From Escherichia phage BEU42: 64,000 bases of DNA. The notes below the pieces were generated by a model. It was not told where the DNA came from, did no database searches, and saw only the letters and a program-made list of their open reading frames with translations. The stretch is taken from sequence record OM632669.1. The stretch is one strand, 5' to 3'. This document shows positions 16,080 to 19,354 of this stretch, piece after piece. The first letter of the stretch is position 1. Every line of letters starts with the position of its first letter. The position numbers were made by a program, and so were the translations under genes.

Positions 16080-18044
16080 ATGCGTCACATTACATTCAAC
16101 AATGAGGGTATCTACCCTATTGCTATCCTTACTACAACGTTACGTAAGGATGATATTGTCAAAGCATACATGGAACCCTGGGATGTAGATAAAGATTCAG
16201 TAATGATTCTTGAACTTCATACAGCCCCAGGGAAAAAGAAAACTCCTGCTAAAGAGATGCAGGAGTTTATTACCCAAGAATTAGTGCCAGCATTCGAAGC
16301 AGCACAAACTCAGTATATCATCTGTGGTGATTCTGAATATTACAAACAGCTAACCAAACAAGGTAAAGCTGATGCCAATATTGGCTATGTAATGGATTGT
16401 GCTTATGGGAACCAGAAAGTTATTTACGTTCCCAATTACAGACAAATCTTTTATGACCCGGATAAGGTAAAGACTAAGATTGCTTTATCCATGCAGGCTC
16501 TGATTGATTATGTCTCTGGTTCTTATGTTGAGCCAGGAACTAAGATTATCCACTATGCTGATTATCCATTAACTCCAGAAGCTATATCTAAGTGGTTAGA
16601 TAAGTTACTGGAGATGAATGTTCCATTAGCAGTAGATATAGAAACCTTCAGTCTGAAGCATTATGACTGTGGTATAGGCACTATTACATTCTGCTGGAAC
16701 AAGCATGAAGGGATAGCATTCCCTGTGGATTATGAACCAATTGAGGGGGCTACTGAAGCTCCTTATGGTAGACAAGTTCACAACATGCTTGTTCGTTCTA
16801 TGCTCAGAGACTTTTTTATTAAGTATCTGAACAGGCAGATGTATCACAATATTGCCTTTGACGTATATGCACTCATTTACCAGTTATTTATGACAGACCT
16901 TCTGGATACGGAAGGGTTGTTGCATGGCATGAGTATCATGCTAAGAAACTGGGATTGCACTAAGTTAATTACCTATCTGGCTACTAACTCTTGTGCGGGT
17001 AATAAGCTAAGTCTTAAAGACCAGGCTCAGGAATATGCTGGTAACTATGCTCAAGAAGAAATCAATGACATTACCAGAATCCCATTAGCAGAGTTGTTGG
17101 AATACAACTTAGTGGATGGATTATGTACCTGGTATGTCTATGAAAAGCATTGGGATACTCTGGTTAATGACCAACAGTTAGATGTTTATACAAACATCTT
17201 CAAACCTGCATGTGAAGATATTATTCAAATGCAGTTAACTGGTATGCCTATCAATATGAAGACAGTATTGGAGGTAGAAGAGGCATTAACCCAAGACTAT
17301 AACAATGCGTTAAAAACAATTGCTGACAGTAAAGTAATCAAAGATTTCACCCGTCTTCTTAATGAAGAATGGGTAGAAAAACAGAACCAGATTCTGAAGA
17401 AGAAACGAGTGACTTTAGCTGATGCTAAAGAACAGTTTAACCCAAACTCAGGTATTCAATTACAGAAGCTACTTTTTGAGTTTCTGGAGTTACCTGTACT
17501 TGGTTTGACTGCAAGTAAACTACCTGCTACTGGCAGTGGCATACTCAAGTCTTTGAAGAACCATACCCAAGATACCAGTATTCTGGAAATTCTTGATGCT
17601 CTGATTGATTACAAAGCTGTAGATAAAATTCTGACAGCATTTATTCCAGCATTAAAAAATGCCAGACAAGGACCAGATGGTTGGCATTATCTCTTTGGTA
17701 ATCTGAACTTAGGTGGGACTGTATCAGGCCGCCTATCCAGTAGTGAACCAAACCTACAGAACCTACCTTCTGGTTCCAGATATGCCAAGATGATTAAAAA
17801 ATGCTTTGAGGCTCCTCCTGGATGGATATTCTGTGGGCTAGACTTTGCTTCTCTCGAAGACCGTATATCTGCTTTAACAACCAAAGACCCTAACAAGCTG
17901 AAGGTGTACATGGGTGTGACTGTTTATACAGTTACTATAGAAGGAGTTGACCATCATATCCGAGATGATGATACAATCGTTTATGATGGTAAAACTTATA
18001 CCGGTGAGGAGTTCTATGACGCTTTTACCCGTGGCCTTCTATGA
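16080..18044 (+). CDS. family-A DNA polymerase, N-terminal fragment (3'-5' exonuclease plus palm up to motif A)
   Basis: ORF track start 15993; ATG at 16080 follows upstream stop; exo motif LAVDIETFSL; PolA motif A GLDFASLEDRI; ORF stops about 60 codons after motif A. Confidence 0.75.
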   Translation: MRHITFNNEGIYPIAILTTTLRKDDIVKAYMEPWDVDKDSVMILELHTAPGKKKTPAKEMQEFITQELVPAFEAAQTQYIICGDSEYYKQLTKQGKADANIGYVMDCAYGNQKVIYVPNYRQIFYDPDKVKTKIALSMQALIDYVSGSYVEPGTKIIHYADYPLTPEAISKWLDKLLEMNVPLAVDIETFSLKHYDCGIGTITFCWNKHEGIAFPVDYEPIEGATEAPYGRQVHNMLVRSMLRDFFIKYLNRQMYHNIAFDVYALIYQLFMTDLLDTEGLLHGMSIMLRNWDCTKLITYLATNSCAGNKLSLKDQAQEYAGNYAQEEINDITRIPLAELLEYNLVDGLCTWYVYEKHWDTLVNDQQLDVYTNIFKPACEDIIQMQLTGMPINMKTVLEVEEALTQDYNNALKTIADSKVIKDFTRLLNEEWVEKQNQILKKKRVTLADAKEQFNPNSGIQLQKLLFEFLELPVLGLTASKLPATGSGILKSLKNHTQDTSILEILDALIDYKAVDKILTAFIPALKNARQGPDGWHYLFGNLNLGGTVSGRLSSSEPNLQNLPSGSRYAKMIKKCFEAPPGWIFCGLDFASLEDRISALTTKDPNKLKVYMGVTVYTVTIEGVDHHIRDDDTIVYDGKTYTGEEFYDAFTRGLL

Positions 18045-18561
18045 ACAACGGTATAAGATTTCCGATGAAGGTTTCATCTTAAATCTTGCAAACAATCAAC
18101 CCCTAAAACCGACTCTCAATCCTAATGGATACCTTAAGGTTGGATTAGCTAATGGCGATGGTACACATCACCAAGAGCTACTTCATATTCTGGTAGCTAA
18201 ACACTTCATCCCTAATCCTTATGGCTATGAACAGGTAAACCATAAAGACGGTAATAAACTGCATTGTCATAAGGATAATCTGGAATGGTGCTCTGCTACT
18301 CAGAATGTTGAACATGCACTTAAAACAAAGCTACGTCCTGGTTACATGTCTGCTGACGATAAAGAGAAGTATCTCTTTGAGGTGCTGGCAGGTAAGCAAG
18401 TTAAAGACATTGCTTTTGAAATAGGTAGGCGTCCTGAAACTTTGCATAAGATGCTCAGAACTACTGCTGACCGACTTGGTGTTCGAAATGAGTGGGATGA
18501 TGTTATGAGGAGAAATAGAAAAGATGTTGCTTTACGACAGCTTGCCAAAATCAACTCATGA
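18016..18561 (+). CDS. HNH homing endonuclease inserted in the DNA polymerase gene
   Basis: ORF track 17947..18561; likely ATG at 18016; YKISDEGFILN start typical of homing endonucleases; HNH core VNHKDGNKLHCHKDNLEWCSATQNVEHA. Confidence 0.75.
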   Translation: MTLLPVAFYEQRYKISDEGFILNLANNQPLKPTLNPNGYLKVGLANGDGTHHQELLHILVAKHFIPNPYGYEQVNHKDGNKLHCHKDNLEWCSATQNVEHALKTKLRPGYMSADDKEKYLFEVLAGKQVKDIAFEIGRRPETLHKMLRTTADRLGVRNEWDDVMRRNRKDVALRQLAKINS

Positions 18562-19354
18562 CTTCACTGGCAAGAAAATTGACAACGTAGTCAAAGCTGG
18601 GAGTTCATCAGGTTACGATGGGCATAGTCTTCGTGCATATGCTTACTTCGGTGAGATGATGCCTGACATTGAAGATACGGTAGAGTCTGTTAATTCTATT
18701 CAGGAGAAGTACAAAGCATATCGTCAGGATTCTAAAGCACCTACCTTTGCTCTTACCTATCAGGGCACATACATCACTTTGATGAAGAACTGTGGTTTCT
18801 CTGAACAGAAAGCTCGAATGGTTGAAGAACGTTATCACACACTTTATAAGGTAAGTGATGACTGGGTTCAGGCTAAACTAGACCAAGCTGCAAAAGATGG
18901 TTATGTAACCGTAGCATTTGGCCTGAGAGTCAGAACCCCCTTACTTCAACAAGTTATCCGTGGAACCAGTAAAACTCCTTATGAAGCTGAAGCTGAAGGA
19001 CGTACTGCTGGTAATGCATTAGGCCAAAGTTGGTGTCTTCTGAATAACCGTGCTGGTTCAGAGTTCATGCGTATGGTGCGGAATAGTAAGCATCGTCTTG
19101 ATATTCGTCCAAGTACCCATATCCATGATGCTCAGTATTTCCTTATCCGTGATGATATGGATGTTGTGATATATACCAATACTCATTTGGTGAAAGCAGT
19201 ACAATGGCAAGACCATCCTGATATTGCTCATCCAGATGTTCATTTGGGTGGGGAACTCTCCTTATTCTACCCAACGTGGGCTAACGAGATTGAGATTCCA
19301 AACTACGCTACGCCCGAACAAGTCCATGAAGCAATCCAAAAGGCATTTAAATGA
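18524..19354 (+). CDS. family-A DNA polymerase, C-terminal fragment (motifs B and C)
   Basis: 276 aa; motif B-like RQDSKAPTFALTYQGT; motif C-like THIHDAQYFL; different frame from N-terminal fragment. Confidence 0.7.
   Translation: MLLYDSLPKSTHDFTGKKIDNVVKAGSSSGYDGHSLRAYAYFGEMMPDIEDTVESVNSIQEKYKAYRQDSKAPTFALTYQGTYITLMKNCGFSEQKARMVEERYHTLYKVSDDWVQAKLDQAAKDGYVTVAFGLRVRTPLLQQVIRGTSKTPYEAEAEGRTAGNALGQSWCLLNNRAGSEFMRMVRNSKHRLDIRPSTHIHDAQYFLIRDDMDVVIYTNTHLVKAVQWQDHPDIAHPDVHLGGELSLFYPTWANEIEIPNYATPEQVHEAIQKAFK

Follow-up and report, generated by a model that had tools for sequence, protein, structure and literature searches.

In Escherichia phage BEU42 (sequence record OM632669.1), the gene encoding the family A DNA polymerase is interrupted by a 695-bp cassette containing an HNH homing endonuclease gene, leaving the polymerase encoded in two pieces. 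The affected region corresponds to positions 16080 to 19354 of the whole 64,000-nucleotide stretch that was analyzed, referred to here as the window. Besides the endonuclease, the cassette encodes a C-terminal extension (CTE, or tail) of the first polymerase fragment (PolN), as well as an extension of the N-terminus (NTE, or head) of the second (PolC). Based on the organization of the region and on comparisons with related phages, it is likely that a NUMOD4/HNH cassette homed into the polymerase gene, that one gene was in this manner turned into two, and that the resulting fragments reassemble, with neither RNA nor protein splicing taking place.

Organization of the divided polymerase gene

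When the window was aligned with the intact gp39 of phage N4, an 859-residue polymerase that is likewise uninterrupted in phages 3HA13 and OLB145, a single 695-bp insertion was revealed, with the two sequences sharing 98% identity elsewhere. Alignment with the intact polymerases of relatives thus placed the insertion between codons Y610 and T611 of N4 gp39 (GTGTAY/ACCGAT, where the slash marks the insertion point), a site found between PolA motifs A and B. The boundaries of the cassette (17910-18604) were defined from the empty sites of N4, KKP3715, and PhAPEC7, together with the filled sites of SP5M and PD205 (both Gamaleyavirus), Pollock (Pollockvirus), and the Klebsiella phage Pylas (Pylasvirus). 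On either side of the insert, the window and N4 are 92-100% identical when compared in 90-nt segments, with the minimum being seen just 5' of the insert.

All of the features of the region are found on the plus strand. The N-terminal open reading frame (ORF) opens with 610 native polymerase codons (16080-17909; 98% identical to N4 gp39 codons 1-610) that encode the 3'-5' exonuclease domain, the thumb, and the palm with motif A (GLDFASLEDRI). It then continues into the cassette for the 44 codons of the tail (17910-18044), absent from N4 and reading MGVTVYTVTIEGVDHHIRDDDTIVYDGKTYTGEEFYDAFTRGLL, before ending at a TGA codon (18042-18044). The longest mechanically predicted version of this ORF begins at position 15993, within an upstream gp38-like gene (15545-16072); homology to N4 gp39 points to the ATG at 16080 as the true start. 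The free-standing homing endonuclease gene (18016-18561) encodes an I-HmuI-like protein of 181 residues in which Pfam NUMOD4 (residues 5-44; 23.8 bits, cut-off 23.4) and HNH_3 (residues 55-98; 26.1 bits, cut-off 24.8) were recognized, both barely above the curated cut-offs. The C-terminal ORF (18524-19354) begins with the head (18524-18610), comprising 27 cassette codons (MLLYDSLPKSTHDFTGKKIDNVVKAGS) and then SS in place of the TD of N4, leading into the native GYDGH. In other lineages, the native TD-GYDGH directly follows the cassette-encoded head. The remainder of this ORF (18611-19354) is 95-100% identical, in 90-nt segments, to N4 gp39 codons 613-859 and provides the fingers, containing motif B (RQDSKAPTFALTYQGT), and that part of the palm in which motif C (HIHDAQYF) is found. 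The order of the three motifs is colinear across the two polymerase ORFs, which match Pfam DNA_pol_A at profile positions 12-180 (E 2.7e-25) and 200-303 (E 9.6e-9), respectively.

The cassette contains hardly any non-coding DNA, being coding in three overlapping frames. The endonuclease ORF overlaps the N-terminal ORF by 29 nt and the C-terminal ORF by 38 nt, with each of the three ORFs read in a different frame. As read from the sequence, the translation start region of the endonuclease gene (18006-18018) is found inside the tail coding sequence and consists of a Shine-Dalgarno sequence (GAGGAG, 18006-18011) and an ATG at 18016. The corresponding region of the C-terminal ORF (18507-18526) offers the same Shine-Dalgarno sequence (GAGGAG, 18507-18512), an 11-nt spacer, and an ATG at 18524, with an in-frame TGA at 18506-18508. 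Neither a sigma-70-like promoter nor a terminator was found within the cassette. A first-pass annotation, drawn from the letters of the window alone, had described a polymerase encoded in two pieces separated by an HNH gene that overlaps both, with the C-terminal piece in a different frame; all three ORFs are indeed present as described, as are the motifs that it quoted for each polymerase piece.

The window phage belongs to Enquatrovirus (Schitoviridae), as do N4 and the closest relatives of the region considered here. The segment from 15900 to 19500 is 100% identical to that of coliphages BEU5, BEU13, BEU14, BEU44, and BEU51, and 98-99% identical to that of VEc25, vB_Eco_SPSP, and AlfredRasser (Bas69). 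Since at least 11 Enquatrovirus genomes that were sequenced independently present the same arrangement, as do three other genera, the division of the gene is not a sequencing artefact.

Coding status of the extensions and the question of an intron

When read in the polymerase frames, both extensions bear the mark of purifying selection. Nei-Gojobori estimates were obtained for the 35 codons of the tail that precede the start of the HNH gene and for the 16 head codons that follow the HNH stop. For the tail read in the frame of the upstream polymerase, the proportion of synonymous differences (pS) was 0.40-0.76, as opposed to 0.025-0.22 for non-synonymous differences (pN), with the ratio of the corresponding rates (dN/dS) being 0.05-0.15 where computable; in the other two frames, ratios of about 0.5 to 4.7 were obtained. 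For the head, pS exceeded pN in the frame of the C-terminal ORF only, as seen in the small sample of window-SP5M, window-Pollock, and SP5M-Pollock pairs, while comparisons involving Pylas did not discriminate between the frames. Purifying selection also acts on the core of the HNH gene (dN/dS 0.08-0.10). When the window and SP5M were compared, pN values of 0.057, 0.137, and 0.213 were calculated for the tail (17910-18041), the HNH core (18045-18523), and the native polymerase sequence (16080-17909), respectively, such that the tail is more conserved as a protein than is either the endonuclease or the polymerase.

The signals governing translation have been similarly retained, with the stop codons, ATG codons, and Shine-Dalgarno sequences of the three ORFs being conserved across genera. 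A purine-rich GGAG-like block precedes the ATG of the HNH gene in all lineages, with the ATG being displaced by 3-4 nt in Pollock and SP5M. In Pylas, the Shine-Dalgarno sequence of the C-terminal ORF is preserved (AAGGAG) despite the overlapping HNH residues having changed from MRR to MKE. Overlapping stop and start codons, each accompanied by a Shine-Dalgarno sequence, suggest that translation of the three ORFs is coupled.

At the protein level, the head always comprises 29 residues up to GYDGH in the nine lineages compared. The tail is acidic (net charge -6, isoelectric point (pI) about 4.2-4.3) and the heads are basic (net charge +1 to +4, pI 8.2-10.4). The AlphaFold2 model of the tail, containing four strands and one helix, presents a predicted local distance difference test (pLDDT) score of 93.7, and the tail is accordingly predicted to be a confidently folding mini-domain. 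The model of PolN alone, calculated from a shallow alignment, reached a pLDDT of 61 overall, with only the secondary structure of the tail being usable.

Group I introns bearing HNH endonucleases are classic components of phage polymerase genes, with that of SPO1 (I-HmuI) serving as an example. Were the insert in the window such an element, the 695-bp sequence would carry the endonuclease, self-splice, and so restore a single polymerase ORF. This is considered quite improbable, even if HNH-bearing introns are encountered in the very same gene of relatives. In the Gamaleyavirus phages PhAPEC7 (locus L006; KF562340) and PhAPEC5, a different HNH insert is found about 165 bp upstream in the polymerase gene. 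That of PhAPEC7 (L006, about 2043-2748, with an Rfam match at 2365-2618) is a genuine group I intron in which a TAA codon directly follows the 5' splice site. A second instance is provided by the three-piece polymerase of locus L012 (GCA_022076565.1, contig JAKLPE010000127.1; 2501-6695), where a tail/HNH/head cassette occupies the same site as in the window and a second HNH insert, a group I intron (Rfam match 5806-6042), is found inside motif B, after KAPTFALT. Both kinds of invader thus reside side by side in one polymerase gene.

Rfam scans distinguished between the two kinds of insert. In the window, no match to Intron_gpI was obtained between positions 17700 and 18800, even at a cut-off of E ≤ 10. 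Similarly, no group I intron was detected in the same cassette of Pollock (L004) and SP5M (L005) at E ≤ 1, or of Pylas (L009), L012, and L013 at E ≤ 0.01, nor was any seen in the related cassettes found at another site in loci L010 and L011 (E ≤ 0.01). The same scans did detect the true introns within this polymerase gene, namely, those of PhAPEC7 (38 bits, E 9e-7) and the second insert of L012 (46 bits, E 7.5e-9), which served as positive controls. Further arguing against an intron, the first 35 codons of the cassette are strongly constrained in what would be the frame of exon 1, and the 44-codon in-frame extension has been conserved over deep divergence (about 28 clusters of metagenomic PolA sequences; see below), whereas the PhAPEC7 intron instead presents an immediate TAA.

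In two GenBank records, the polymerase is given as a join across an intron (MZ501049, AlfredRasser; MH899585, Pylas), while in three others two polymerase coding sequences are listed (MW175414, VEc25; KM236242, Pollock; MT682708, SP5M); in the PD205 record, the HNH gene was left unannotated. The joins in the AlfredRasser and Pylas records are based on genome comparison and not on RNA data, as described for intron boundaries in the BASEL paper. Of the conflicting annotations, the evidence considered here favors that of two genes.

The first-pass annotation had likewise preferred a split gene to an intron, reasoning that the scant DNA outside the HNH coding sequence leaves little room for a ribozyme. 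Taken alone, that reasoning proved weak, since a ribozyme core may overlap the endonuclease ORF, as do the Rfam matches in both PhAPEC7 and L012, such that an intron is compatible with spare DNA being scarce. The preference itself stands on other grounds. Together, the negative Rfam scans with their positive controls, the purifying selection acting on the coding tail and head, the conserved translation signals, and an architecture resembling that of MobA and MobE elements (see below) support placing the cassette not among introns but among elements of the MobA/MobE type, in which a free-standing homing endonuclease gene splits its host gene. As such, RNA splicing would not be expected at the polymerase locus, judging from its sequence.

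Distribution and mobility of the cassette

The cassette was found at the Y610/T611 site in at least four genera of Schitoviridae and in about 28 clusters of metagenomic PolA sequences. When the tail served as query in tblastn searches, the only phages matched were those that also contain the HNH gene, these being distributed across four genera. An exhaustive HMMER search, in which the 44-residue tail was compared with 1.84 billion representative sequences, yielded 34 matches, some 28 of which are N-terminal PolA fragments or pieces thereof with the tail at the extreme C-terminus, directly after ...TKDPNKLKVY. None of the 34 matches is an intact polymerase containing the tail. On this basis, the idea of the tail being a loop native to some intact polymerase was rejected, given that in both the tblastn search of phages and the exhaustive HMMER search, it was encountered nowhere but at the ends (C-termini) of truncated PolA sequences.

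The gene neighborhood was considered in four of the metagenomic cases. In all four, the order was helicase, gp38-like gene, PolN with tail, an ORF of about 180 residues, and PolC, with Pfam assigning the intervening ORF to HNH in two cases. The PolC called in L013 lacks a head at its start. Among the best 120 relatives of the N-terminal ORF, 118 are intact and two are split.

Sequence comparisons speak to how the cassette is transmitted. Between the window and Pollock, the cassettes are 84-96% identical, as compared to 50-65% for the polymerase genes. Where filled and empty alleles were compared, identity was 96-100% but dipped to 85-93% in flanks of about 100 nt; for SP5M (filled) and KKP3715 (empty), identity of 90-100% along the gene gave way to 85-88% in the approximately 100-nt flanks on each side. 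As judged from these alignments, the dips in flank identity are taken to be the co-conversion footprint of homing. In addition, a Gamaleyavirus-type N-terminal fragment encoded by a metagenomic contig of 68,965 bp (P0123; 652 residues) is 69% identical to that of the window and ends with a tail identical to the Pylas tail. The presence of a Pylas-identical tail on a Gamaleyavirus-type polymerase suggests that cassette variants have been exchanged between genera. Together with the contrast in identity between cassette and polymerase and the dips in the flanks, it points to horizontal spread of the cassette.

Related tails (…YEGKTYTGEEFYEAF…), accompanied by overlapping NUMOD4/HNH genes, were also noted at a second PolA site, after GYDGH…MPDI, in L010 (305-1877) and L011 (1557-5729). 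The L011 polymerase is encoded in at least four pieces, while L010 presents an in-frame fusion between the HNH ORF and a C-terminal polymerase piece that does not include motif B.

Relation to other gene-splitting systems

The arrangement seen in the window recalls that described for the MobA element of phage T4, which splits the large subunit of topoisomerase II (Topo2L) into gp39 and gp60. According to Manning and Atkins (bioRxiv 10.1101/2022.08.31.505936), MobA comprises an HNH gene set, out of frame, between an in-frame CTE of T4 gp39 of about 44 residues and a unique NTE of gp60 of about 30 residues, with the ORFs overlapping, the extensions being selectively conserved, and empty sites being found in near-identical relatives; the same authors state that MobA elements are exclusive to Topo2L. 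In the structure of the T4 enzyme reported by Xin et al. 2024 (PMC11461880), the CTE and NTE together make up a pendant domain, some 70 residues in size, that was interpreted as an assembly bracket. The cassette considered here shares with the T4 element an out-of-frame HNH gene between a CTE and an NTE of such lengths, ORF overlaps of a few to tens of nucleotides, near-identical relatives with empty sites, conserved extensions, and a total of about 70 added residues. The two differ in terms of target (Topo2L of myoviruses as opposed to the family A DNA polymerase of Schitoviridae) and nuclease (a MobA protein of 270 residues as opposed to a NUMOD4/HNH_3 protein of 181 residues). Moreover, the present cassette contains neither a translational bypass cassette nor a 'homR' sequence standing in for deleted parts of the target, with only the two codons TD having been changed to SS.

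Similarity between the extensions of the two systems was addressed by using hhalign to align two profiles, one built from 21 tails and the other from four MobA CTEs (T4, Proteus PM2, and the Aeromonas phages 50AhydR13PP and Aswh_1). The profiles aligned over 30 ungapped columns with a score of 21.4 (P 1.3e-4), a score reached by none of 300 column shuffles, where no value above 15.5 was seen. When the tail model was compared with the Protein Data Bank (PDB) using Foldseek, the top match, itself below significance, was 8yo3_C, a T4 gp39-gp60 chain that contains the gp39 CTE (template modeling score 0.53 over 44 columns). Apart from this T4 lead, Foldseek against BFVD, together with profile hidden Markov model (HMM) and Foldseek searches against the PDB, returned nothing significant for the tail.

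The Aeh1 nrdA/mobE system (Friedrich et al. 2007; Crona et al. 2011, PMC3045599) offers a second parallel. There too, a free-standing HNH gene splits an essential enzyme such that active-site elements are distributed between two polypeptides, oppositely charged C- and N-terminal tails derive from the insertion, and neither RNA nor protein is spliced. Split NrdA cannot be active in the absence of the oppositely charged tails to which mobE gave rise, as shown by Crona et al. (PMC3045599). In Aeh1, however, it is the C-terminal tail that is basic and the N-terminal one that is acidic, whereas the polarity is reversed in the present case (tail pI 4.3, head pI 8.2-10.4). Likewise, the Aeh1 split was treated by Crona et al. 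as essentially a single case, as opposed to a cassette found in at least four genera and about 28 clusters, and tail function was demonstrated biochemically in Aeh1, while the role proposed here is deduced from comparison. A third parallel is provided by the Vibrio N4-like phages JA1 and VchO139-I (Fouts et al. 2013, PMC3670811), where an N4-like polymerase is also split in two by an HNH gene; Fouts et al. merely suggested an intron, without analysis, and the likeness is one of description rather than of site comparison. As for the group I introns of PhAPEC7 and L012, these share with the window cassette the same polymerase gene, a NUMOD4/HNH nuclease of the same general kind, and the logic of homing, yet are set apart by the Intron_gpI match and the immediate stop after the 5' splice site, neither of which is seen in the window.

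Certain observations nonetheless weigh against a split gene of the MobA/MobE type. Beyond the two records containing a join, considered above, the Foldseek match to 8yo3_C falls short of significance in its own right (E 0.46), with no listing given of the residues that aligned. The head showed no significant similarity to the MobA NTE, with 26 of 200 shuffles reaching the observed score, and the HNH protein of the window showed no BLASTP similarity to two MobA proteins (E > 0.7). Finally, the tails of Aeh1 NrdA are dispensable for pairing of the fragments, being needed only for higher-order assembly (PMC3045599). As the nucleases are not similar, any kinship with MobA would be through the CTE alone and, with the nuclease belonging to a different HNH subfamily, the element was filed as working like a MobA element rather than as one, namely, as a cassette that carries a free-standing homing endonuclease gene, splits its target, and contributes both a CTE and an NTE.

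A further reading is that the tail and head represent the two parts of a split intein, between which a free-standing endonuclease gene is found, with PolN and PolC being joined by trans-splicing, as in what Dassa et al. 2009 (PMC2677866) described as fractured genes. Both present one and the same gene order (N-extein with extension, endonuclease gene, and extension with C-extein), the targets of fractured genes are also phage replication enzymes, and Ser or Thr is always found two positions before GYDGH, where it would serve as the +1 residue, with the preceding residue being Asn in Pollock, Pylas, L015, and P0004. The nucleophile expected at the start of an intein is, however, not conserved. 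The first residue of the tail can be M, I, T, S, L, Q, A, or V, such that no conserved Cys or Ser nucleophile is present, while the last residue of the head is N or Q in six of nine lineages and S or R in the other three, being S in the window. Moreover, tail and head together comprise 71 residues, about half of a minimal Hint domain (about 130 residues), and neither Hint nor intein profiles in Pfam and NCBIfam matched the extensions at E ≤ 10. Comparison by hhalign with five inteins (Npu and Ssp DnaE, gp41-1, Ssp DnaB, and Mxe GyrA) gave probabilities below 1%. These negative searches speak against an intein or split intein by sequence, with only a weak structural resemblance remaining. Given the variable first residue, a length only half that expected of a Hint domain, and the lack of any HMM match, protein splicing is not expected, and a fractured gene is accordingly held to be most unlikely.

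That the polymerase gene was simply inactivated by being broken in two, with another polymerase replicating the genome, is scarcely credible since, even though neither fragment alone contains a complete active site (motif A being in PolN and motifs B and C in PolC), both are near-identical to N4 gp39 with no internal stops, many viable isolates have retained the arrangement, as have about 28 diverged clusters whose ORFs are intact, and the extensions are under purifying selection. N4 replication requires its own gp39 polymerase. Given that phages carrying the cassette, such as AlfredRasser/Bas69 and VEc25, are viable isolates, the split enzyme must work.

A free-standing cassette that divides the gene can be envisaged as acting in the following manner. 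The 695-bp cassette would have homed into the essential polymerase gene between motifs A and B, converting one gene into two. A single operon mRNA would then direct the synthesis of three products, namely, PolN (654 residues, about 74 kDa), consisting of 610 native residues with the exonuclease, thumb, and motif A followed by the acidic 44-residue extension; the 181-residue endonuclease; and PolC (276 residues, about 31 kDa), in which a basic extension of 27-29 residues precedes 247 native residues that include the fingers with motif B, as well as motif C. PolN and PolC would reassemble non-covalently into a two-polypeptide enzyme. By analogy with T4 gp39/gp60, the tail and head probably co-fold into a domain of about 70 residues at the junction of palm and fingers, where it may serve as an assembly bracket. 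During co-infection, the HNH enzyme would cut the intact Y610/T611 target of relatives that do not carry the cassette, after which repair would copy the cassette, together with short flanking tracts. In N4, the putative target is ...AAGGTGTATACCGATGGTTACGATGG..., around GTGTATACCGATGGTTACGATGG.

At the level of annotation, division of the polymerase is already known, appearing in several GenBank records, and splitting of N4-like DNA polymerases by HNH genes was noted in 2013 (PMC3670811). In the literature searched, only passing mentions of split N4-like or Schitoviridae polymerases were found, and no demonstration that the insert is not an intron, no conserved cassette-borne PolA extensions, and no similarity between the tail and the MobA CTE were encountered. 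As such, the link to MobA and the portable nature of the extension appear to be undescribed. The element would join a small, experimentally studied class, represented by MobA and MobE, that brings its own CTE and NTE to offset the splitting of an essential gene.

The tail mini-domain recurs at two PolA sites and resembles the MobA extension of the T4 topoisomerase. It can be speculated, if only tentatively, that the tail and head, rather than being chance remnants, constitute a portable protein clip of about 70 residues, common to homing elements with unrelated nucleases and targets (T4 MobA and the NUMOD4/HNH elements at the two PolA sites), and possibly derived from half of a Hint fold, as the relic of a split intein that can no longer splice but now holds split essential enzymes together non-covalently. 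Were such a common, transferable assembly module to exist, it would explain how free-standing endonuclease genes can invade the middle of essential genes and would offer a natural and very small pair of tags for the reassembly of split proteins.

Lastly, it was noted that Pylas contains a second HNH endonuclease gene (L009, 4276-4794) just 3' of the polymerase operon, where it is flanked by a gp40-like gene and that encoding thymidylate synthase.

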